DNA of 64,000 nucleotides, taken from the NCBI RefSeq assembly GCF_902652985.1, contig NC_047016.1:32302001-32366000 (forward strand), written 5' to 3'. Positions 4,741-62,812 of this stretch are shown here, piece by piece. This DNA is from Pecten maximus. Lineage: Eukaryota. The notes beneath the pieces were generated by a model that was not told where the DNA came from, made no database searches, and was given only the letters and a program-made list of their open reading frames with translations. The stretch's first letter is position 1, and each line of letters starts with the position of its first letter. The translations under genes and the position numbers were made by a program.

Positions 4741-4861
4741 CACAGGCGTCTGCTTCTGGTTAGTATTAATAGGAAAACATATTAACTCCCAACTCCTATT
4801 TTAGTAAGAGTAGGGGATACTACTGTTTTTTATAGATACTTACCAGAAGCAGACGCCCGTG
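4741..4861. mobile_element. 121-bp fold-back MITE-like element
   Basis: cacaggcgtctgcttctggt (4741-4760) vs accagaagcagacgcccgtg (4842-4861): 19/20 inverted match; interior is an imperfect palindrome; no clear TSD. Confidence 0.65.
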
Positions 4862-8095: not shown

Positions 8096-9461
8096 CCTCA
8101 TATAGGTTTTTATTTGTTTTTTTGTTTTGCAAGGAGTCTTTGCTTTTAATACCTTTCATCACATAACTTACATTTATTTACATTTGATAGGTTTTATAGT
8201 CAAACTATGTGGACAAAGTCAAACGGAGGCAGTCATTTTGTTGCACCATTCACAATTCATGACGTCACCATCAATTTTTGATCGGCACAGCCAATTAAAA
8301 CACTCCATATGGTATATTACCAGTGATCTATGCATAAATATTACAAGGGCGAATTCAATTGATGATATGCCGATCATGTGATGATTTTCGATATAATATA
8401 TCCCTTCTTAAATCATTAATAAAATGGTACTAGAAATACTCACGTGACGGGATGCTAACGATTTATTAACATACGTATCTTGTTCTGATATTAGCATATT
8501 TCCTGACTCATTTTGTAGATCGATTGACAACCGAGGGGTAACCCTTCATGCCTCTTTTACATACATTGTATTCGTTTTGCAACCACTAATGAAATGTGCA
8601 CCTTTTTTTAGGGGTCGTTCAACGCCTGAAACGAACGCCCGTGATACTGATAGTTATAAATATAAAAGGAGGGTAATGTGAAGTTTACTTTCCGTGTAAC
8701 CATAGGGACCATTAACCATTGTATGACAATGCCCAGCAGGCTCTACATTTCACATAATGAGAAAAACGTATTCGGCATTCATAGTATATGAAATATTGGC
8801 AGAGATGATTTTCCGCCGGATCCTTATAGCAGATATCACCTGTTGCTTCATGTAGATACATGATTCCTCCACTGATTATAGACGATAGTTCCCACGTACA
8901 TCTAATCAGTTTCCAGTTAAACAGACCTACCGACATACACTTAGTAATACTTACCTAGAGTAGTCCCCTACTGCCGAACTATCTCTGCCTATTTAACAGC
9001 TGATATTTTAGTTTGTTGTTAATACTGTAACACAATTAGAATTGTTTACAGAATCTTTAATATGCAGTTCCTGTATCTGTATCTGGGGGTTTCTTCCGGA
9101 AGCCATGAAGGGACTTTATTATTTACCACTTCAGATCTATAATTACTGATCTATCAGTCCATATTTGTTATTATTTAGTTCTTATAACTTAATAAGAAAT
9201 AACAAATCAGTCATTATACATAATAAATAATAATAAATAAAAAGTATCACTCTGGAGCTTCAGTATTGTCTGAATGTTCACAAACAATAATTTTAGTTTT
9301 TGTATGCAAACACAAGACTATGTCATTGTGGACATGCATATACAGCTCTTGTCGGTGTTTTCTTTACAGAAAAATATTCTTACAGGCACATTACCTTCAC
9401 TTCACTTGACAAGACAATAACGTTCAGGAACAGGTAGTTAAGGAAGAAAAGAATATCAGAA

Positions 9462-9830
9462 AATGACACCAGAAAAAAAAATCAAATGATATCAGAAAAA
9501 GATAGATATCCAATGACATCAGAAAAAGATATATATCCAATGACATCAGAAAATGATAGATATCAAATGACATCAGGAAAAGATAGATATCAAATGACAT
9601 CAGGAAAAGATAGATATCCAATAACATCAGAAAAAGATAGATATCAAATAACAGCAGACAAAATATAGATATCAAATGACAGCAGACAAAAGATATATAT
9701 CAAATGCCCTCAGACAAAAGATATATATCAAATGACATCAGAAAAAGATAGATATCAAATGACATCAGAAAAAAGATAGATATCAAATGACATCAGAAAA
9801 AGAGAGATATCAAATGACATCAGAAAAATA
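9462..9830. repeat. 30-bp satellite (ATATCAAATGACATCAGAAAAAGATAG-type), left part
   Basis: Tandem units; the same array resumes at about 11166. Confidence 0.93.
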
Positions 9831-11170
9831 GAGGTTCCCCAACGAGTGGAGATTGTTTATCATTTTTATCTAACTCGAGTTAGTTAATTTTCTAATTTTG
9901 AAAAGACACGAGCTTTAGCGAGTGTCTTTTCAAAATTAGAAAATTAACTAACGAGAGTTGGATAAAAATGATAAACAATCGTCACGAGTAGGGGAACTTG
10001 TTTATCCCATAACTTCTTTACTTACAAATGTAAGCATGTCAAGTTCAAATTCTCCCAACGTAGCAACTAAATTCCGTGAACCAAATCACCACGGGACAAA
10101 ATATAGGTCGTTATGAACGAAAGCTTATCATCTATTTTAGATGCACGACTCATATCTTCTGTACTATATTTTTAAATGATATTATTTCACAAAACGAAAT
10201 ATAAGTTTGGAAGTCCTTGTATCTGTGTAATGTATTAATAGGTAACTTGTTTAAATAGCTCCGCTCGAAATATTAGAAGACGACACCGTCATCGCGAAGT
10301 TGAACGTCACCGCTGAATATTAGACTAATCATTGTCAGATTCAATTATCTGTCCTTTCCTGGATTTCGTAGGTATGCTATTACTGGTTATTATGATGTTA
10401 AATGTTCATTCTGAGACATGAGACAAATTTTCCAAGATGATTTTTAAAGTTTTGTGTTTGGGATAAATATATTCGTAATAAAGGTAAGTGGAATGATAAG
10501 AAAACTTGTGTTTATTCGGGTTTTTTTCCTGGTCCGTACGAATGACACCCAACTAAAAGGGAAGCTGCCTAACAGTTACGTTAGATGGTGCGACCGTTTC
10601 ATTCAAATGACTACGATTTAGAGACAGCGATTTAACCATTTTGTATTAGGCTACATTTGTTCATTGTTTTGATAATTCATTCATTGCTATCGGGATCCAC
10701 TGCATATCTAGAATTAAAGGGGGGGGGGGGGGGGGGTCAGTTTTAATTCGCTACTTGTAGGCCTATAATCTATGCAATATCTCGCTTCCGTCGTCTATTT
10801 TACCATCAAATTTTATTTCGTACGACTCAAACCCCAGATTAATCGACATTTCCATGAGGACACCCGGGGACCCCTCTCACCCAGTTTAATATGCTAATGT
10901 TGAGCACCAAAAAATCATCAAAACGTGTCCATGCTGATCTTTTGAAGACAGACGGCAAAAAAAAGAGAAGATAAATGAGAGTAGTAAAAATAGTCCGTGG
11001 TCAAAGGCCAGAGGTTAGCCAATCAGATTCGTTGGAGGTCACAAATGACCAATCGGAGGCTTAGAAAGTGGTTACACACCGCGGTGTGTAAACAAAAACA
11101 ATAACACACTGCTACGAATTTTATCACGTGCCATATCAGTTGTGAAACAAGCGTGGTTATGGGATAAATA
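9831..11170 (+). mobile_element. Non-autonomous hairpin-ended element (Crypton/tyrosine-recombinase-type architecture suspected) inserted in the satellite
   Basis: Interrupts a satellite unit with aaata on both sides; 5' end is a hairpin of about 165 nt (9832-9999); tttatcccataac (10001-10013) is complementary to the 3' end gttatgggataaa (11156-11168); no coding capacity. Confidence 0.75.
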
Positions 11171-11460
11171 TAGATATCAAATGACATCAGAAAAATATAG
11201 ATATCAAATGACATCAGAAAAAGAGAGATATCAAATGACATCAGACAAAAGATAGATATCAAATGACAGCAGACAAAAGATAGATATCAAATGACATCAG
11301 AAAAAGAGAGATATCAAATGACATGAGAAAAAGATATATATCAAATGACATCAGAAAAAGATAGATATCAAATGACATCAGAAAAAGAGAGATATCAAAT
11401 GACATCAGAAAAAGATATGCAATGTATATCAAATGACATCAGAAAAAGATAGATATACAA
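11166..11460. repeat. 30-bp satellite, right part
   Basis: Same unit as 9462-9830. Confidence 0.93.
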
Positions 11461-12974
11461 TGAGATAAATATGACACTGTAAGGTCTCGGACAAGATGGC
11501 AGGAGGAAAAAACAACAACAAAATACACAATACTATTTTTTTCGAGAATTAAAGTTTTATTTTCAAGAGGAAGAGTAGATACTGTAATAAGTACATTGTA
11601 ATAATTAATAACAGGACGCACATTCAACAGAATTTGTGCGAAAAACAACTGAGTCTCGGTGTTTGGAATTGATACCAAGCATATAAGAGGTCTAACAATA
11701 TTAATACAGGCAACTGTTCATAAAGAATCTCATTTATCATTACATTGATACTGGGCCTCAAAAAGAAAGCTATTAGTAACACAAAGACATCGTTATATAT
11801 ATTTACTAGGATCATGAACGCAGACAGGTTTTTAAAACATTATAACAATATCAAATATTGTATGTAAAATTGGTTCAAGGAATATAACTGGCACATGTAT
11901 GATGCAGGTTTTCTTCCATCGCTGGGAAATATTGGCGACGATTCTGAAAAAGTTCACATTGTGGTGAATGGAGAAAATGTCATAAGGACCACTTATATAA
12001 AATGTTAACATGAAAGTTTATATGATGAAGATAGTAAGAAAAAAAACATTGTTATATATAGTTGTTTTTTTAAAACTCTTAAAAATCAAATGGACATACA
12101 GCCCAATATAGATGACACTGACAATGAACAGCTACCAGTTGTAGTATAAGACAATATGTATACAATGATGACAGGTACATGGAATGTCGCCGTTAGCATC
12201 AGGTAACAGTTCAATTCTTATATTTATATCACTGTACATCAATATATATATTTTTTGTGACTGAAGTGAAAATGCGTTTAGATTTAATACCGACATATAG
12301 GCAAATGCAACATAGAATGTAGATATATAAATTCAATTTATATACAAATAAGCATAAGACATTTGAATGTATATTCTTATACTAAATATATCGATTTCAT
12401 AGAAGTCATGCTGTAATGTGTACGATTATCGGTGTGGAAATCACGTGTCTATGGCAAAGATAATTATATACATGTACATATATTTTGCTTTGATCTCTAA
12501 CCGTGCTTATTATTGTTTACTAAACAAACGAATACATGTTATCATGTATTTTTTGTTGCTTATTTTTGACAATGTCATCAAGCACTTATTCGGTATACAT
12601 GCCCTTTTCTAGTTCCCTATGCACACTGACACAGATAAGTCGAACCATACGAGTTTTACTATATATACAAATAGGCACGCGCCATTTGAATTTCGAAACT
12701 ATTCATGACCTTTGAAGTCCATTTATATGTTCCATCCGTCAGTAATGGTGAACTATAATGTCGCTTTACTTTGACCTTACTTGTGTTATTCCACCTACCT
12801 GATTATAAATCAAACCTCACATCCACTATCATATTTTGGATGAGGAATTGTATTTTGCACTCTTGAAAACATATACCATTAATATAATTAAAAGTATAAA
12901 ACCGACGCACAGCCCCTTTTGGAGATCAACCATGCAATACATAAAATAAATAACAAATCTCTTCATCAACAGAT

Positions 12975-13862: not shown

Positions 13863-15062
13863 TCAAACATTCACAAACAGGAAAAATCCAATTGTAAATG
13901 TTAAGTTACAACACAGCATTAACCAACCACACACACAATCCAGTTTCAAAGCGACTTTCCGGCAAATCTCTTCGGCAAAACCTTTCGACGTTTTTGTTTC
14001 CACAATGTCTTCTTCGTTCTTAGTGGTAATTGGTCCTAGTGATAATCCTAGTAACGGAGCGACAAAGATGGCGAATCTACTAAAACACGAGTCATGCCAG
14101 CAAGGGTTGTTATAAAGTCTCAGAATAAACACCTCGGACGAGATTGTTAGGATGCCAAGGATAGTCTGGAAAACCAAGTAAATACAATAGGCAGGCATAT
14201 GGATCGACGACTGCGGAAGTGAGTTTCCAACCAACGAGAGAAAGACAGCAAATGTGAGGAAGATAGCCATGCACATTCCTATCTTTTCACCGCTTTCTGG
14301 AGGCAACACGAAACATAATTGGTTCAGAAAGGACATAAGTAGGACCGGGAGAATGATATTCGCGATGAAAAATGTTGATCTGCGTTCAATTTTGACAATG
14401 AACAAATTCTTACTAAATTTCAATTCCGACTCCAGGCGCGTGGAGTACTTAACATCAGTATCTACAAGCTTCCACTCTTCGCTTTCCTCATAAAAACTGA
14501 TATCAACTTTCGAAGTATCTGAAGAAATGTTAATCTTGGAATCGTCAGAATACCATTTACCGACTTCCAGTGTACACTCCTGTTCATCAAAAGGGTATTT
14601 AGTAGTATCGATTTCACATTTTGTTTTTACTTCCTTACCAGGCCACCAAAACACTTCTCCAGTCGATCTTACTGTTGGATCTATAAAATTAGTATGTTGC
14701 ATTCCCTTTTTGTTCCCGATTTCATTGCGCAGCAGTATATCCGGTGTCCATATACGATTGAAAGGAACACGACTACTATCTATGCCGCCATACTTACTAG
14801 TATTCCAGGCTAGTTGTTCATCAAACCAGCGAAGCTCAATCCAAATTAATGATGACATGGAACGTTCACGTTCATTTAGCTCAATGACGGAAATCAGGAA
14901 AAGCTCCACACTGACGTTAACTGGCTTTGTAACATCTGACACAGGCCGTACGTATGGGTCAATACCGTAGAGTATGTCATCATGTAGCCGAGCTTCAGGA
15001 AGCTTTGCGCTTGAGCTCTGTAAACAGACACATACACATATCATCCAAGTACTCAATTTCAT
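13863..15062 (-). CDS. Intronless Cys-loop ligand-gated ion channel subunit, nAChR-like, non-alpha (399 aa), copy 1
   Basis: First ATG at 15062 (the ORF-track start at 15110 is GTG); signal peptide, WTPDI, Cys-loop CEIDTTKYPFDEQEC, four TM helices, PPESGEK before M2; no vicinal Cys in loop C. Confidence 0.95.
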   Translation of the reverse strand: MKLSTWMICVCVCLQSSSAKLPEARLHDDILYGIDPYVRPVSDVTKPVNVSVELFLISVIELNERERSMSSLIWIELRWFDEQLAWNTSKYGGIDSSRVPFNRIWTPDILLRNEIGNKKGMQHTNFIDPTVRSTGEVFWWPGKEVKTKCEIDTTKYPFDEQECTLEVGKWYSDDSKINISSDTSKVDISFYEESEEWKLVDTDVKYSTRLESELKFSKNLFIVKIERRSTFFIANIILPVLLMSFLNQLCFVLPPESGEKIGMCMAIFLTFAVFLSLVGNSLPQSSIHMPAYCIYLVFQTILGILTISSEVFILRLYNNPCWHDSCFSRFAIFVAPLLGLSLGPITTKNEEDIVETKTSKGFAEEICRKVALKLDCVCGWLMLCCNLTFTIGFFLFVNV

Positions 15063-15827
15063 GATTATAAGTTCTGTATGTATCTGTTCTGTACCATTTT
15101 GGAATATCACTTTTCATCCTTATGGAGATTCGGTATTTTCCGACAGTACGCAACTCATTGTCGTGTTGTTTTGTTCTGGATATTTGGTCAAATGTATGAA
15201 TCTATAGCACAAACTGTTGAATGGTCCATACAACAAATAGTAGCCACGCTAGCTAAGTAATTCTACTCCTTAGTTAACAAGTCACATCAGATGATGCAGA
15301 GACAGTTTGTGTTGATAAAGGACTCGTTCTCATATGTGTCATGGGAAACGCCACACAACGGCACGGAACCATATACAGAACATTACCGCCGCAGCATTAT
15401 CACGCGAACACGACAGCATTACACTCCGGGGATGTAAACTATATAGTGATGTTTTTATTTCTCGTATATAAAGCTTTTGATATAAATTATGTACATAATC
15501 AATGACTAGGTCGTCATGCGAAATCTAAACTACAAATATAGCAGCTTCCTCCATTCACATAAACCTATCTCAAATAGGGTACACACTGGTGTAGAAAATA
15601 TGTTGTGCTTATAAGATATCAAAGTCAAGAAGCATGGTAAATGGTAAACGTAGACCTTTTTTTTTTACCTCATACATGCTACCAGGTTGAATTTATACAT
15701 AGTAGGGTGTAAACACATTGGAATGTATATAGCGTATAGCACTAGCATGCGTTGAGTGTGTTTGTTTTGAGCAGTAAATTGTTTCTATTAGCATGTAGTA
15801 TGTGTTTGCTGTCTTTTGGTGAGAACT

Positions 15828-22172: not shown

Positions 22173-23360
22173 TTACACGTTCACAAACAGGAAAAACCCG
22201 ATTGTAAATGTTAAGTTACAACAGAGCATTAACCAACCACATACACAATCCAGTTTCAAAGCGACTTTCCGGCAAATCTCTTCGGTAAAACCTTTCAACT
22301 TATTTGTTTCCACAATGTCTTCTTCGTCACTTCCTAGAGATAATCCTAGTAAAGGAGCGACAAAGATGGCGAATCTACTAAAGAACGAGTCATGCCAGCA
22401 GGGGTTGTTATAAAGTCTCAGAATAAACACCTCGGACGAGATTGTTAGGATGCCAAGGATAGTCTGGAAAACCAAGTAGATACAATAGGCAGGCATATGG
22501 ATCGACGACTGCGGAAGTGAGTTTCCCACTAACGAGAGAAAGACAGCAAATGTAAGGAAGATAGCCATGCACATTCCTATCTTTTCACCACTTTCTAAAG
22601 GCAACATGAAACATAATTGGTTCAGAAAGGACATAAGCAGGACCGGCATTATTATATTCACGATGAAAAATGTTGATCTACGTTCGATTTTCACAATGAA
22701 CAAGTTCCTACTAAATATCCATTCCGACTCGAAGCGTGTGTCACGCTTTACATAAGCATCTATAAGTTTCCACTCTTCGCTTTCCTCAAAAAAAGTTGTA
22801 TCAACTTTCGAGGAACCTGAAGAAATATTAACCTTGGAATCGTCAGAATACCATTTACCGACTTCCAGTGTACACTCCTGTTCATCAAAAGGGTATTTAG
22901 TAGTATCGATTTCACATTTTGTTTTTACTTCCTTACCAGGCCACCAAATTACTTCGCCAGTAAATAATACTGTAGGATCTATAAAGTTAGTATGTTGCAT
23001 TCCCTTTTTGTTCCCGATTTCATTGCGCAGCAATATATCCGGTGTCCATATACGATTGAAAGGAACACGACTACTATTTATGCCGCCATACTTACTAGTA
23101 TTCCAGGCTAATTGTTCATCAAACCAGCGAAGCTCCATCCAAATTAATGATGACATGGCACGTTCACGCTCATTTAGCTCAATGATAGAAAGCAGGTAAA
23201 GTACCACACTGACGTTAACTGGCTTTGTAACATCTGACACGGGTCGCACGTATGGGTTAATATCGTGGAGTATATCATCATGTAGCCGAGCTTCAGGAAG
23301 CTTAGCGTTAGAACTCTGTAAACAGACACATACACACATCATCCAGGTATTCAATTTCAT
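22173..23360 (-). CDS. Intronless Cys-loop ligand-gated ion channel subunit, nAChR-like, non-alpha (395 aa), copy 2
   Basis: First ATG at 23360; close paralog of 13863-15062 with the same motifs, PLESGEK before M2. Confidence 0.95.
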   Translation of the reverse strand: MKLNTWMMCVCVCLQSSNAKLPEARLHDDILHDINPYVRPVSDVTKPVNVSVVLYLLSIIELNERERAMSSLIWMELRWFDEQLAWNTSKYGGINSSRVPFNRIWTPDILLRNEIGNKKGMQHTNFIDPTVLFTGEVIWWPGKEVKTKCEIDTTKYPFDEQECTLEVGKWYSDDSKVNISSGSSKVDTTFFEESEEWKLIDAYVKRDTRFESEWIFSRNLFIVKIERRSTFFIVNIIMPVLLMSFLNQLCFMLPLESGEKIGMCMAIFLTFAVFLSLVGNSLPQSSIHMPAYCIYLVFQTILGILTISSEVFILRLYNNPCWHDSFFSRFAIFVAPLLGLSLGSDEEDIVETNKLKGFTEEICRKVALKLDCVCGWLMLCCNLTFTIGFFLFVNV

Positions 23361-26300
23361 GGTTATAACCAAGTTGCGTATCTGTCCTATAAGTTTCCGT
23401 AATATCACACTATTTCAACTCCCCGAAGATTCGGTTTTTTCATTGTTGAATAATAACTGATGATATATAGCCATTGGCTCATTGTGTTTGAACTGAATAA
23501 TTCCACAAAATGTGTCTGCAGCTCTTGAATGTCAAACGAACTAAGATATTAGATAAAAAAAAAAAGGAGAACTAGCCGCGTTTGCTCAAGGAATTCTAAA
23601 ACTTGGAACAAAGTTAATAAAATATATAAAAAAAACTACGCTGATATAGTCGTGTGTTGATGAATGATGTGTTCCTACAAAAAGCCAAGCCACGGTAGGA
23701 TACGATATGCATAACATTACCGCTACAGCGTTGGTAGGCAAACACGGCTGCATAACACTTAGGGGTAGTACATGTGTATATACTGTTGATTCTGTTTCTC
23801 GTAAAATATCTACACAATCAATGACTAGGTCGTCATGTGGAATCTAAACTGACAGCTTCCCCTCCCTTCACATTAACTTTTCAATGCGATCAACGGGAAA
23901 CATAACGATGAATAAAAATGTGTTTTTCTTATAAGATATCATCAAAACAAATAAACATGTGATCAGCTTGGTATAATAACCATTATTGATCCTGTTTGTT
24001 AAAATGTTTATAAATTTTATTAAATAATTCGATCTAATTGTCCTCCTTACACAGTATGCATTAATAAGAATACCCTTGTGAAGTACATGTACATACAATC
24101 CGAAGGCTGAGGTACGTAGCAATGCTTTATTTTAGAATGATCCAACAGCAATTTCGTTAACATGTACAATGATAAGGAATCAAGTATAATGGTAGTAGAT
24201 TGAATATGAGATGTACAGGGAAGACGATATCTAAAACATATATAAATAATCAAAAATACAATACTATAGTAGCATATCCTATTTATTTGGTCTTAGATAT
24301 GACCAATTAACAGCTAATAATACATCTAAGTAAAAAAAAACTATTATATATATTGTATATGTGGCATTGTGATATTTTGCGTAACATAGCAACTGTTCTA
24401 ATTGTTAAGTTTTATATGTGTTATTGCATTTTTATTTCATTGATTTAATCGGTAATAGAAATGCATGATATATGTCTATAACATAATACGGCAGTACGTT
24501 ACAACTCATACTGGCCCTGTGAGCGCTACACATGTAGATAACGTTTCTTATACAGTGAAATTCTGATGAGAGTTCAGCAGCAACGTGTATCGTAATTCGA
24601 TGACTATTTTACAACGGAGCTTTATTTATATTTGGTAACGGCTTCTGTTTTATCGATAGTAGGCAACGCGTGAGGTTTTCGAAGATATTTTCAGATAGAT
24701 AATACGCATTTTCTTTCATTCTTTGGAACATATATCGCTGTTTGTAACTTCTATGGGAGGTCAATAATATACAAATAGAAAGTTGGACATACAACGGTGA
24801 CTATCGACATAATAACGAAAGCAATAAAACAAGGGGAAATGTGAATAAAAGGTAATAATTTGTATGGAGATCCTTGTACAACTGTTGGTAACAATTAAAT
24901 GTGTTTTACCTACGTTTGTCACGCTGTTTTTGCTGTGTTACGGATGGTTATAATTTGATAATACAGTATATGTTAAGTTATCAGTAAAACCTTTATAAGC
25001 GTTCTATAAATCAGAGGTTAAGGAGAGAGAGTGACATTAGATTAGCGGTTATCACAGAGAAGATTTTTTATTCATGAATATCTTCTCCCTTTTCTCTTCT
25101 TGTTCATTTGTCTGAACTGATTTGTTTCATGTTTTGTTTTGAATGGGAGGTACTTATTATATTGGATGAAATCGGCATTTGTCGTTGAAGAGTTGTCTCT
25201 CTTCGCATTTCACCATTAGCAAAGAGAAGCGATTTGTACTTTTCTGAGATGGATCACAGGACGTGCTCTTTTTGTGATTTCCCTTCAATCTTTGTACATT
25301 TTTGTATGTTGAAGATCAGATAAAGCCAATTTTTTTCCTGATATACTTACATATGTGTTAGTCTTTTAAGTAAACAGAATTATAACATGCATATAGGGCT
25401 TCTGACCCTCGGTTGTGAAAATATGATTTTCTATCGATACACAGTGTGCATATGCGCTAACAGACAAACACTAGTAGCTGTGGTATCGTCATTTGGCAAA
25501 GTAAGGGTCACTCTTGTAATACAGAATTCGTGACTATCTAAAATTAACTCAACAAAATGGAATGTAAATTTTTAAGAACGGAATTAACGTCTTTTCATAC
25601 CAAAATAGTTTTTTTCAACTTTTTCTGGAACATTTTTGTTCTTTACACTACCATATCGGGTAGATTAGGAACATTTCGTCCTTTTTATGGAAACATTCTT
25701 TTGTAAGGTGATTCTTTTACCCATGTTTCCCCTATCTATGGAGTATACCCTTTCAGATGAGTCTATATAACAGCTGCTGTCGGCAGGTGTCAGGTTGATC
25801 AACACTATGTGCTGGTTTTAGTAGTGACACCATAACCACAATGAGAATAATATAATTTCGGTTTGCGACATAGATATCGACGATTTTAACCAGCATACCA
25901 AAGTGTCTTTTTGTTTTTCTTGTTACAAAACTGATTTTTGTAATCATTTTTATTAACTGACAGACAATCTTACATGACACGGTGTCGAGATTTGTAGTTT
26001 GACGGAGTCACGGGAAAGAGTGTATGGTCGACATTATATCTCATAGTGTGGTTCAGCATGTTAACGTTCGTTGGTATGGCTGGTGCTTTAATTGTCATTA
26101 CCTCAGGTTTCATTTGAGAACATGACATCAACTAGATTTGACCTGGATATATGCTTACTTTTCCGAAACACCTGGTCTTATTTTCCGGATAAGGATATTT
26201 TATAATAACATATATTCCTTATTTGGAACATATGGATGTTAATCATTTCCTCCCATGTGGTTATATTTTCTCTGATGTTTATCGATTTAGAGTTGGACTT

Positions 26301-32863: not shown

Positions 32864-33583
32864 TTAACCGATTCTGCTACTGGCGCCGGTGGCAAGCAGC
32901 CACAGGAGGAATCCAAAGCCAACTGCAAGGACAAGAATAACACTATGTAGCATCGTCGCATTAAGAGAAAGTACCTTTCACAGTGGAGTATTTGTACATT
33001 AGAAATCAAATGCATGTATAACTTACCATGCGTCGTGTTTTTATTGCTTTAAATGTAACTTGATATTTTTCATAATTTATTTTGATATTTTCCTTAATAA
33101 TGACACATTTTACAGAAAACAGTGTCATTAAAGACTTTCAAAATTTGCTTTGGATTATAAAATTTCTTATCAATACTTACTGACGGCCCAGAGGGAGTCT
33201 CTGTTGGTACCGCCATACAGTCCATTTTGGTCTAGGCCAAGGGGTGGAGCGATTGGCGGAACGCTTATGCCATACGGTACGTTCATGGCATAAGCGCTCC
33301 CACCGTATCCTCCTCCGCTCCCACCGTATCCTCCTCCACTCCCACCGTATCCACTATATCCGCCTTTCCCTCCGTACCCTTGCATCCCGGTATATCCCTG
33401 GCCGTATCCCTGCATCCCGCCATAGCCCTGGTCGTAGTAACCCTGTCCACCATATCCACCACTGTACATTCCACCGTAGCCGCCATAGCTACTATACCCG
33501 CTGTATCCACCATCACACGTGACCATCGAGAACAATCCACAGAGGATCGCCCCGGAGGCGATTGCTATAAGTAGCAAACGCAT
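32864..33583 (-). CDS. Gly/Tyr-rich protein B with signal peptide and C-terminal hydrophobic anchor; join(33583..33181,32922..32864), 153 aa
   Basis: MRLLLIAIASGAILCGLFSMVTC-DGGYSGY...VPPIAPP...RDSLWAV|IGFGFLLWLLATGASSRIG*; donor gtaagt at 33180, acceptor ccttgcag at 32923; 3'UTR intron 32824-32450; AATAAA near 32368. Confidence 0.88.
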
Positions 33584-36749: not shown

Positions 36750-37908
36750 ATGAGGTTCGCTTGTGCGGTTCTCGCCTCACTGGCCTGCCTCTCGGTAGCG
36801 ATGGGTGACGGTTACGGAGGTTCCTATTATACGGGCCAGAACATGTAAGTAAACAAAAGTAGGATCTCTTGTAAAGTTTAGAAATACTGAAATATCATGA
36901 TTTCCTATTACTGTTATAACAATATCGTCTTATTTTATATGTTAATGGTTTATTATATATATGACCGTCTATAATACAGAAACATTATCCCCATCATTTG
37001 AAGTATATATTCAACAATTTACTAAAAGTGGTGTTGTTTTTTTATATTTGTATCATCGAATGATGTATATTTTGTTGCTCATTCGTAACATTTGGCTGAT
37101 CTTTGAAAAGAAAATCAGAGTGAGGGGAAACAGATGAATAGCACTTATTAAAAATAGACAGGAACAAGGCTTCGTGTGTTGTTTTTGATTACAGTTAAAT
37201 GTGATTATAACGAATTCAACGGGCTCAGAAAAAATAAGTTTGAAATCAATCCGGGATTTTAATTTACTGCTAATAAGAAGAATTCGTATCAAGCCTGTTT
37301 GTTTATGGGAAGTGTTGCTGTATTTTATCAATAGGTACAATGGTTACGGAAAGGGAGGTATGGCTCCGGTCTATAATTACGGCGGATACGGTGGATATGG
37401 AAAAGGAGGAGGCTACAGCGGATACGGTGGAAGTGGTGGCGGATATGGGGGCGGATATGGTGGTTATCCAACACTACTTTACCCTGTTGCCTCCCCAGAA
37501 CCAGCTGATATCCCGTTGGGAGCCCTTGGAGGACTGTACGGCGGCGGCGGTGGCGGCGGCTACGGAGGAGGAGGAGGATTATTTAGCGGCGATGGGAGCC
37601 TACTTCTTCTTTTGGGAGGTAAGTACTGGTACAAGGCATATACTCGTCCGCAATGCTATCCCATATTTCATGCATTCAATGCTAATTTATAACAATAAAA
37701 CCACAATGTAAGAAAATTATTTTCCTTTCTCGCCACCGTAGTATTCTACCATAGTGCTGGATATGTAATCAAGAAAATGTTGTATTGCTTCAGTAATTAT
37801 ATTTACTTGTATGTGTTTAAACGTTAACATAATATGTAATATGTCGTTTTGGCTTGATTTTCAGGAGCTATACTGCTAATGGCTCTCTTGTCCAACAACA
37901 CTGGATAG
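36750..37908 (+). CDS. Gly/Tyr-rich protein C; join(36750..36844,37335..37618,37865..37908), 140 aa
   Basis: MRFACAVLASLACLSVAMG-DGYGGSYYTGQNM|YNGYGKGG...YPVASPEPADIP...DGSLLLLLG|GAILLMALLSNNTG*; all junctions GT-AG and in phase; 3'UTR intron 37941-38382. Confidence 0.88.
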
Positions 37909-39136: not shown

Positions 39137-39438
39137 TTATTATAAAAATCATTATATGACTACACTATTTACCAAACGCTGATTGGTATAAACAGTCCGC
39201 ACAGGTTTATGTTAGATGCGATATTAAACAGCAATGACGACAATTTGCACTAGAGGGTAATATTGAAATCCAAAAACCCCGCCGTGAGCCTCGCAGGTTA
39301 ATAACTGAATCCAAAACACCCGCTGTAAAACGGTTATCAACTTCTTTCATGTGGAAACGAGGATTTATCAACCTGAGAAAGTCCGGTCTCGGGAAATATC
39401 ACTTTCTCAGGTTGATAAATCCTCGTATTCACCTGAAC
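39137..39438 (-). mobile_element. Short hairpin-ended non-autonomous element (architecture like 9831-11170, opposite orientation)
   Basis: 26-bp perfect inverted repeat 39357-39382/39401-39426 with imperfect extension; ctgattgg near the other end mirrors ccaatcag near 11020. Confidence 0.55.
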
Positions 39439-60887: not shown

Positions 60888-62145
60888 CTATCCTGTGTTG
60901 TTATTGTTTAACAACAGGAGAAGCAGGAGGAAACCCCCAACTGCAAAAATCAAATATTGGTTTTATAACCCATTCAAGTTAATTTTAACAGGGGCAATGG
61001 TACAACAGAAATAGTTCCTGTTGTAAATAAGCCCAAATTACGTGGGGAAAAATGCACCATAAACCTACCGAAATCTACCAACGGAAGTCATCAAATTTTA
61101 TGGATTTTCATTCATCATACTTGGTGATCAACACATGTCACTTACAGGGCTCCGTACTTATGGCTACCCGTACTTCCGGTGTTGATATTCATGTTGAAGC
61201 ATAACAATATGTTACACTTAATCAAATAACTTTTTGAATATATTTAAATTTGGAATACCTATTTGATGTAAATAATAAGGAAATGTAATGTTTCATGGAT
61301 AAACAAGTATTTAGAATGTGTCATTTCTTTAATACGAATTAACCATTCGATCTCGGGTAGAGTCACCTGTGGAAATCGTGACATTGGCTCTCAGCAGAGT
61401 GGACTTTATGAAAAAGGCATGCATTCTTTAAAATAGCAAATGATGAAAACTTGAGTTTTATTACAGCAATATAATTCATATTCAATAAGCTGAATAAGAA
61501 ATATTCATATTTTTTCTGAGAGCATTACTCGGTTTTGTGGAGCAGCGCGTGACCCTTCCAGGTGCAATAAGTTGGCAGGATAAAGGCTAATTCTTTGTCT
61601 AAAGATTGATTTGTGTTTGGCATATAAATCCATGTTGATATCATTTATAATATTCCAAAGTGATCTTTCTTAATATGTTACGAATATTTTCTAGTGACTG
61701 AAGTATAGTTCGGGGTGGTCTAGAAGCATATTGCCAACTAATCGATCGGAGATAAGGTACATCATGGATGACTTTACTGCCTTACGTTATTTATAATTTA
61801 ATATTTGAATATCATATGTTAGTTATACTCACGGTAAAGCAATGTATTGTCATTGTTGTTTTCGGCATAAGCAGCACCAGCGATGGCACCTGGTGGTGGG
61901 CCCGCGGGGTAGGGTATGTAAACCGCCCTATTGGTCATTTCATACCCCTTTCCGTGGTAGCCTTTTCCGTATCCCCCATATCCACTTCCGTAGCCTCCAT
62001 ATCCTTTTCCGTATCCCCCATATCCACTTCCGTATCCCCCATAGCCACCGTAGCCCCCATAGTCCCCATATCCTCCATCCCCGAGACAGCTGCCCAGGAA
62101 TGCCAGAAAGGTCAAGAACGGCAGAGCTATGATGGCAAACTTCAT
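60888..62145 (-). CDS. Gly/Tyr-rich protein F; join(62145..61833,60940..60888), 121 aa
   Basis: MKFAIIALPFLTFLAFLGSCLG-DGGYGDYGGY...IPYPAGPPPGA...NNNDNTLLY|LGGFLLLLLLLNNNNTG*; donor gtgagt at 61832, acceptor tttgcag at 60941; 3'UTR intron 60857-60283; AATAAA near 60186. Confidence 0.88.
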
Positions 62146-62812
62146 GCTGATCCTAATATTTTTTTAATTAAAAAAAGTGCATGTGAGCGTATGTTCGTTG
62201 TTTCGTCATAATCAGATGGATACACATGTACATACCAACCACAACTTTTTTATGGAACAATAATCCTGTATCCCCGATGTATTTCTGATTTATATTCGAC
62301 GCCCAAAATATATCATATAGGTAAAAGGCCATGTCCAGCCACAAATTGCTTCAATATTTGGGAATTAAAATCAGCAATTTCTTTGAACTTAAACATAAAG
62401 ATTGTAATACTGGCATATGTGTATAAGACAATTCTTATCAACGTTTTGTGATGGTCGTGATAAATTCGTCACATAAAACCGTAAATAAAGTATGATAAGT
62501 TTGGGTTCTATGAAAATCATAACAAAACGGTTCAGTAATGTACCTCTGATGTCAAATATACCTTAAAACTAAATATTTACGACCACAGTTTACCGTATTA
62601 TCTAGATAGAGTGGTAAACAATAATTTAACGAACCAAATTAAAAACCTTCAGACGTTATAAAAGACAAAATAATATATGTTCAAAAACACGTCTTAAAGT
62701 TTACAGTATGTTTGTATGGTGATCAAAATCCGGATCAGATACCTTGATGAAAATTAGAATGTACATGGAGATCACTTAACAAACACTGATCCCAGTAAAT
62801 ATAATACCTTAC

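Follow-up and report, generated by a model that had tools for sequence, protein, structure and literature searches.

A strand-specific hairpin with tandem G·A mismatches at one end of a non-autonomous CryptonA element in Pecten maximus

Within the window analysed here, a stretch of 64,000 nucleotides of Pecten maximus DNA (NC_047016.1, positions 32,302,001 to 32,366,000 of the forward strand), a long hairpin carries tandem G·A mismatches at regular distances. This raises the question of what kind of element the hairpin belongs to and whether the mismatches mark one of its strands for folding. A preliminary description, made from the letters alone, had proposed that the plus strand is selected to fold as single-stranded DNA or RNA, with recognition marks for a protein placed about three helical turns apart. 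We show here that the hairpin belongs to the class of tyrosine-recombinase Cryptons, an identification absent from that first reading, and that its G·A blocks stay with the strand on which the hairpin comes first. For the window hairpin we infer a single-stranded intermediate, and below we weigh this reading against its alternatives.

Structure of the hairpin and of the element around it

Every pair of the hairpin lies on one axis (i + j = 19831), with arms at 9832-9913 and 9918-9999 around a 4-nt loop, and no longer inverted repeat occurs in the window. Folded as DNA, the plus strand reaches a predicted -65.1 kcal/mol (z -19.2; none of 200 shuffles equalled it). Six of the 11 non-Watson-Crick positions in 9832-9999, the loop left aside, belong to three tandem G·A/A·G mismatches (9844-45/9986-87, 9877-78/9953-54, and 9910-11/9920-21), each of which lies within CGAG opposite CGAG. 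The CGAG motifs start at 9843, 9876, and 9909 in the 5' arm and at 9919, 9952, and 9985 in the 3' arm, that is, in 33-nt steps per arm. Axis pairing and DNA fold together confirm the hairpin and its three tandems as first described. The remaining mispairs are A·A at 9841/9990, G·T at 9849/9982, A·G at 9850/9981, T·G at 9871/9960, and G·T at 9833/9998. The T at 9871 is private to the window copy; contigs of three of four sequencing runs have C at this position, and the fourth run gave no cover. In DNA, CGAG opposite CGAG gives sheared G:A pairs by NMR (PMC10085684).

The opposite strand, carrying the complementary mismatches, had been expected to be unstable. This could not be upheld when both strands were folded, since the opposite strand reaches a predicted -62.1 kcal/mol, which is also strong and leaves a gap of only 3 kcal/mol. 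Across families, the gap in predicted folding energy between the two strands is mostly 0-6 kcal/mol.

The non-random placement of the tandem mismatches proved to be a property of the family consensus and not a product of decay, with each tandem intact in 58-59 of 63 copies. Exact matches to the lattice of six motifs numbered 61 in the genome (G000) and none in the reversed control; by their displayed letters, 57 of these were copies of the same family, family A, in which the whole lattice is kept, and the other four lay inside one tandem repeat. While the tandems stay, the arms change in compensating pairs, as a check for covariation revealed. Two-sided changes were found at 25 of 76 predicted pairs among eight sequences of families A, B, and C, which are related, so that these changes are not independent events.

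The element that begins with the hairpin is delimited in Table 1. Family A copies usually measure ~1,450-1,500 bp, and the window copy is without ~140 bp near 10416. A search of G000 with the element gave 768 candidates, of which 40 were scored and found to be 98-100% identical, and its exact left and right ends matched 130 and 138 times, respectively. Joined to each other, the two flanks restore the unit of the host minisatellite, so nothing was duplicated or lost on insertion. Contigs of sequencing runs that match the element, which attest its presence only, came from source runs labelled as the same organism in 19 of 20 cases.

Table 1. Positions, in the window, of the element, its hairpin, and its insertion site
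Feature	Position	Strand	Basis or remark
Host 27-bp minisatellite, left half of insertion site	9461..9828	.	joins right flank into unaltered unit
Whole non-autonomous CryptonA element, family A, 1,340 bp	9829..11168	+	both boundaries common to dispersed copies with unrelated flanks
6-nt spacer of putative recombination core	9829..9834	+	candidate crossover at or just before 9829
5' arm of hairpin	9835..9913	+	pairing and fold
Outer CGAG block	9843..9846 vs 9985-9988	+	clean 2x2 loop restricted to A, D, and part of the C copies
Middle CGAG block	9876..9879 vs 9952-9955	+	46 nt from inverted repeat; 41-49 across families
Inner CGAG block	9909..9912 vs 9919-9922	+	adjoins loop
4-nt loop	9914..9917	+	tip also in families B and C; G000 contains it 1,014 times (exact)
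3' arm of hairpin	9918..9996	+	pairing and fold
4-nt stretch opposite 6-nt spacer in folded junction (putative role)	9997..10000	+	~2 extra bases on G·A strand; fold of natural tandem junction
Subterminal 13-nt inverted repeat	10001..10013	+	exact complement of far end; co-changes with far end in every family
Putative promoter-like stretch	11019..11130	-	recombinase ORF of coding version begins just beyond and reads toward hairpin (L084)
Terminal 13-nt partner of inverted repeat, right end	11156..11168	+	sequence, copy alignment
Host 27-bp minisatellite, right half of insertion site	11169..11463	.	joins left flank into unaltered unit

Two further families share parts of this architecture. Family B, of 461 bp, has the left end and the tip of family A, together with different arms and a different inverted repeat that matches its own far end. 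The ends of B recur in family C (L299, L303), which is likely the autonomous partner of B. Other loop sequences at the same tip spacing gave a single match in G000, itself a B copy. Searched for in viral contigs, the lattice pattern gave 40 matches, none of which was a hairpin, the best of them having 36 of 70 positions paired, and the tip pattern gave two matches in metagenome contigs, neither like the element. The window contains other imperfect hairpins, at 39334-39449 and 4741-4861, with 49-nt arms, no G·A tandems, and no match in the Crypton hairpin library.

Recombinase-coding relatives and recurrence of the hairpin

Our first idea was that of a Helentron derivative, that is, a non-autonomous Helentron or Helitron2 moved by a rolling-circle Rep-helicase. 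Subterminal inverted repeats, a terminal palindrome, and the lack of a target duplication resemble HINE and DINE-1 elements (PMC4067079), and many long RepHel-type frames are present in the genome. The subterminal repeats of Helentrons, of 12-15 bp, fit those found here, whereas their palindrome of 5-10 bp and their Rep-helicase (PMC4067079) stand against a palindrome of ~80 bp per arm in scallop. None of 20 long RepHel loci, taken from 92 matches, shared ends or sequence with family A, and the versions that do share its ends encode a tyrosine recombinase; the chance that a Rep-helicase moved the element is, in our judgement, close to negligible. As a separate observation, at least 20 Helitron-type loci (within L171-L210) have uninterrupted frames of 2,466-3,229 codons, and Helentrons have probably been active in the scallop genome recently.

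A search for an autonomous partner with the same ends, proposed in the preliminary description, was successful at two loci. In a 2.65-kb version (L084), a DUF3504 ORF, which matches PF12012 (E 4e-27) and reads toward the hairpin, is surrounded by the family A hairpin, its repeat, and the right-end region; identity is 91.5% over the first 236 nt. At the second locus (L275), hairpin, repeat, and far end were found on both sides of the recombinase ORF. L084 came from 40 stretches fetched at unpaired ends, and its ORF was the only one scanned with Pfam, the other long frames being multi-frame-repeat-like. We take the motifs in the promoter-like stretch to be CCAAT boxes at 11019 and 11049 and an E-box at 11125. 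The family A gene is apparently split by an intron in L084, and the catalytic residues visible in this family are R, K, and HxxR only, in a rearranged locus. L084 itself (G000:C12:30701570-30711520) is an inverted duplication of two back-to-back copies, 98.9% identical over 2.3 kb, the longer of which is cut exactly at the start of its terminal inverted repeat.

Single intact ORFs of 480-561 aa were found in five sister families, and these retain R, K, (H/T/Q)xxR, H, and Y. None of the five lacks either arginine or the tyrosine, the first H being H, T, or Q; domesticated DUF3504 genes differ. The L084 fragment and the five intact ORFs matched PF12012 with PF00589 or PF25561 and no other domain at E<=0.01. 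No reverse transcriptase was found in the coding elements of 2.2-2.7 kb, and neither a Rep protein nor a helicase is encoded by the elements. A model of one of these recombinases (pLDDT 90.3) had Cre as its best structural match (Z 21.6, rmsd 3.4, 303 aligned), followed by IntI (Z 16.8) and then by XerA and QRICH1 (16.4). Homologues of the recombinase carry PF12012, and the named ones are from molluscs and cnidarians; in viral contigs, none of 39 candidates was confirmed.

DUF3504 is the recombinase of CryptonA (PMC3212892), and since the longer versions with the same ends encode it, the element is a CryptonA and not a Helitron. Like described CryptonA elements (PMC3212892; Glomhopper, PMC13465315), the scallop elements have one DUF3504 tyrosine recombinase, a length of 2-3 kb, and many non-autonomous derivatives, as well as no usual terminal inverted repeats, no target duplication, and a target-like microhomology at one end. 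Unlike these, they possess a terminal hairpin of 150-180 nt with strand-specific G·A blocks, an asymmetric inverted repeat of 11-20 nt, and a defined target of the form arm-6 nt-arm. They belong to CryptonA by every tested feature but the reported absence of terminal repeats. For animal Cryptons, the available text of PMC3212892 states that no terminal repeats were found, and its supplement gives 'n.d.' for all eight CryptonA rows. The accessible portion of PMC13465315 describes fungal CryptonA as having no detectable terminal repeats, and that of PMC8969392 mentions only a short direct repeat for Cryptons. The reported absence is not a diagnostic trait of CryptonA, and the hairpin with its repeat is a new feature of these elements. 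A literature search, with Repbase Reports, Dfam notes, and subscription papers beyond its reach, returned no report of hairpins or tandem G·A mismatches in Cryptons. Annotations describe some Eulor repeats as forming hairpins, and the palindrome itself may therefore already be noted in Repbase or Dfam.

The recombinase search gave 121 matches, and the 70 loci examined represent 57 distinct places, of which those on small contigs may include alleles. At 28 of the 57 places, the gene is flanked by a hairpin together with an exact inverted repeat, with the G·A tandems on the hairpin-first strand in 25 cases, flipped in two, and lacking in one. Two further places pass with a one-mismatch repeat, both having G·A on the hairpin-first strand, and three (L260, L297, and L305) were too rearranged to be scored. 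The remaining 24 were without a hairpin-plus-repeat pair, some of them truncated or at contig ends and some with long open frames. The positive loci comprise 13 lineages, with recombinases 33-70% identical, which are related by ancestry and do not count as 13 independent trials. Two places with long DUF3504-type frames (L284, 560 codons; L289, 467 codons) have no hairpin within ~3.5 kb and represent either hairpin-less Cryptons or domesticated genes.

The same layout, with a tandem at ~43 nt, surrounds a 51% identical recombinase on a contig of another organism in a bacterial bin (L330). At L331, left out of the count, a truncated recombinase has a related hairpin tip next to it, which lies on the sense strand and has no matching far end. 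These contigs in bacterial bins probably carry animal-type recombinases as host contamination. The recombinase frame of L330 is broken by a near-perfect palindrome of 118 nt.

Spacing turned out to be less uniform than strand. The 33-nt period noted at first holds in families A, B, and C (33-34 nt), but distances of 23-30 nt between tandems in the other families refute it as a universal period and as a general rule of three helical turns. Despite this variation (23-34 nt), the motifs face each other in register. The outer third tandem is optional among families; what is conserved, in almost all families, is a tandem at a distance of 41-49 nt from the inverted repeat, with L257 having a 2x3 loop at this place.

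Strand polarity, target site, and recombination junction

The claim of a strand-specific design was borne out by 887 unflipped against 16 flipped G·A tips, alongside the 25 of 28 clean loci mentioned above. Flipped copies are more diverged (5-8% vs <2%) and older, and the flips are uneven in extent. Flips occur, but no lineage is fixed for them. Their frequency of <2% and their uneven extent rule out a parvovirus-like flip/flop replication. On the hairpin-first strand of 16 representatives, we counted 76 G·A against 4 C·T mispairs and 23 G·T against 5 A·C, the latter count depending on the folding program, in which G·T is favoured as a pair; one satellite row was dropped from this count.

It might be supposed that the mismatches merely protect a long palindrome from deletion, G·A being the cheapest interruption and read by no protein. 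Hairpins with internal deletions (L253, L259, L263, and L303) exist, as do copies in which a tandem was converted to perfect pairs. However, such protection does not call for one particular strand, one four-base context, or a fixed distance of 41-49 nt, and the flips arise repeatedly without having become fixed. We regard mere protection as very improbable.

The conversions deserve attention in their own right. Two-base arm-to-arm conversion has turned the middle tandem into perfect pairs in 3 of 63 A and 5 of 32 B copies, a frequency far above the point-mutation expectation of ~1 in 10,000 per copy (estimated from the 1.7-1.9% rate). These conversions point to fold-back in vivo. The B copies concerned, ~15% of those sampled, are as young as intact copies, which means that young copies can be without the middle tandem.

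At 23 of 25 clean loci, the G·A hairpin-first strand is antisense to the recombinase gene, and at the other two the hairpin is located upstream of the gene; a hairpin in the mRNA is therefore unlikely. In family E (L256, L298), the gene is inverted and points away from the hairpin, with G·A still on the hairpin-first strand. Thus, the mark follows the geometry of the element and not its transcription. Family E also has the longest inverted repeat (at least 20 nt), as if the interior had once flipped between the repeats. Of the initial suggestion that the plus strand is selected to fold as single-stranded DNA or RNA, strand specificity stands, and the part that would concern a hairpin in the mRNA is unlikely to hold.

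RNA might act in other ways, with a transcript of the hairpin strand, for example across the circle junction, serving as a guide or scaffold, or with a DIRS-like RNA copy as the mobile form. Tandem G·A pairs form in RNA as well as in DNA, and the promoter-like stretch at the far end could fire across the junction. Contigs of two RNA runs cover parts of the element, which documents presence and not transcription. In DIRS elements, too, an internal stretch of a tyrosine-recombinase element is complementary to its ends and joins them, but these, being retrotransposons, possess long terminal repeats and a reverse transcriptase (PMC13465315). The coding elements have no reverse transcriptase, the apparent intron of the family A gene would be lost from an RNA copy, and the G·A blocks keep to their strand whichever way the gene points. 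Moreover, an Rfam search returned no family at gathering score, 11 of its 12 sub-threshold matches being generic long-hairpin miRNA models. Given these points, we consider an RNA as the working molecule improbable.

The target of the elements is of the form expected from the arm-spacer-arm rule of tyrosine recombinases (PMC3212892). Its logo has A at -1 in 66/66 A and 46/47 B sites, A at -3, T at -4, T at +7 in 45/52 A and 32/36 B sites, and a weak bias from +1 to +6. This form, arm-6 nt-arm, mirrors the element's own end-to-end junction, and the left flanks are similar to the element's final 6 nt, which gives a short microhomology. The data fit a rule in which the 6-nt spacer of the target need not match that of the element.

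The fate of the spacer indicates which exchange product is inherited. At loci that were partly picked by left-end searches, the left-end spacer was kept within one mismatch in 68 of 69 A and all 45 B copies (113/114). Right flanks started with the spacer in 6 of 88 cases, five of which belonged to a following tandem element, so that 1 of 83 non-tandem flanks remained. The genome-wide count of 887 exact left ends beside ~1,000 tips has the same direction as this spacer bias. Had both strands been exchanged, heteroduplex spacers would result, and after replication as many as half of the copies would carry the mirror product; at 1/83, only the hairpin-first product was found.

When folded, natural end-to-end junctions bring hairpin, inverted repeat, and far end together in a single ~97-bp stem, with 6 bases opposite 4 at the crossover. 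In the other families and in L330, this 6-against-4 geometry was read by eye. At two rearranged loci of family H (L305 and L297), the 4-nt stretch opposite the spacer is extended to the full 6-nt complement. Head-to-tail dimers of the types A-A, B-B, B-A, A-B, and H-K were also observed (L006, L069, L100, L297, L052, and L219). They are no proof of circles or rolling replication, because insertion at a target-like end explains the mixed-family dimers; the right end of a Crypton is a preferred target for another Crypton.

One folded strand or a double-stranded circle

Anatomy, partner, polarity, target rule, and one-strand inheritance are established by the data above, and the steps of a folding reaction are proposed on their basis. 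From the sequences, we lean, if only slightly, towards the reading that the hairpin lets one DNA strand fold into the recombinase site, followed by a single strand exchange as in attC or CTXphi. The hairpin-first strand would become single during replication or cruciform extrusion, and its far end would pair with the subterminal repeat and stack on the hairpin. Both recombinase arms would then be duplex around the 6-against-4 spacer. One strand exchange would free a single-stranded circle, with the donor being repaired (copy-out). This circle would be inserted by another single exchange, now with a duplex target, and replication would resolve the product, as for attC x attI and CTXphi. The sheared G·A blocks may mark the right strand and provide a protein contact ~45 nt from the core, and they would also interrupt an otherwise perfect palindrome of 80 bp.

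For attC and CTXphi, it is established that the site is a folded single strand and that replication resolves the product (PMC4792948; PMC5027507). Integron attC with IntI is similar in being an imperfect palindrome with strand-specific unpaired features and in its use of a tyrosine recombinase, and the predicted single exchange with replicative resolution would be a further likeness (PMC4792948; PMC5027507). Two attC-like traits are present in the scallop elements, namely, strand-specific unpaired features of a palindrome and inheritance of one strand's exchange product. Unlike attC, the scallop case is a eukaryotic transposon with its own enzyme and a site that would be built from both element ends. 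Moreover, attC is marked by flipped-out bases, whereas the candidate marks in scallop are sheared G·A blocks far from the core, and the scallop enzyme model is nearer Cre. The likeness to attC is a working analogy and not membership. In CTXphi, the single strand of attP folds to mimic a duplex site for XerC/D (PMC4792948); this phage, in contrast, relies on host enzymes, one chromosomal site, and a single strand from rolling-circle replication, and the scallop element is without a Rep protein. IS200/IS605 elements likewise have strand-specific end hairpins, no duplication, and a target motif adjoining one end (PMC13565253). Their enzyme is of the HUH type and their small hairpins are located at both ends, as opposed to a tyrosine recombinase and one long hairpin here.

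More tentatively, as a possibility to be taken seriously rather than one that we expect to hold, animal CryptonA elements at large could be eukaryotic single-strand tyrosine-recombinase transposons. Their folded ends would rebuild an attC-like site, equipped with a G·A strand mark and a ruler of ~45 nt, and a single Cre-sized enzyme would place the cargo in a short degenerate target, no double-strand break being made.

Several findings count against the reading of one folded strand. The two strands differ little in predicted folding, inheritance of one strand would equally be expected if a single exchange took place on a duplex circle, and no encoded Rep or helicase would supply single strands. 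In addition, the middle tandem is missing by conversion in young B copies, 24/57 recombinase places are without the hairpin-repeat pair, and the enzyme fold is nearer Cre than integron integrase.

The main alternative is a double-stranded circle, in which a Cre- or Tn916-like core would be recombined on the duplex junction. The hairpin would be an accessory here, as a cruciform exposing the ends, as a primer or origin for copying of the circle, or as a binding place for extra subunits. Such a circle is the published working model (PMC13565253; PMC3212892), assumed for Cryptons while their mechanism is described as undemonstrated in the available text of PMC13565253. It is consistent with the target logo, which fits an ordinary arm-6 nt-arm site, with Cre as the best structural match, and with the ability of both strands to fold; combined with a single exchange, it also accounts for the strand bias. 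However, a double-stranded circle needs no repeat placed where folding rebuilds both arms, and this position recurs across families together with the 6-against-4 spacer. Neither the motifs staying in register although their spacing varies from 23 to 34 nt nor the near absence of second-strand products (1/83) would be called for by this model. On balance, a reaction confined to the double-stranded circle appears rather unlikely to us.

The analysis provides Crypton ends, a target rule, matched intact enzymes, and a sharp prediction, namely, that one folded strand reacts, which makes the question of mechanism one for a bench test. If one folded strand does react, folded-single-strand recombination, described so far for integrons and CTXphi, would extend to animals, and a natural function, as a recognition mark, would be found for sheared G·A pairs in DNA. 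The hairpin design furthermore allows recognition of non-coding Crypton derivatives, which number >1,000 copies in one superfamily here. It also offers a lead for the ancient vertebrate Eulor5/6 repeats, which are classed as Cryptons and have been linked to salmon Cryptons (PMC5753468).

Apart from the Crypton, the window contains two uninterrupted frames of 416 and 413 aa (13866-15113 and 22176-23414, minus strand) for neurotransmitter-gated ion-channel subunits, both with PF02931 and PF02932. Lying ~8.3 kb apart, they are a tandem duplication. Short repeats rich in glycine and tyrosine codons form a cluster, with members on both strands, at ~33300-33510, 37189-37692, 49403-49855, and 61756-62211. 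The scanned frames of these repeats had no Pfam match, and we presume that they could code for structural proteins of shell or cuticle type.
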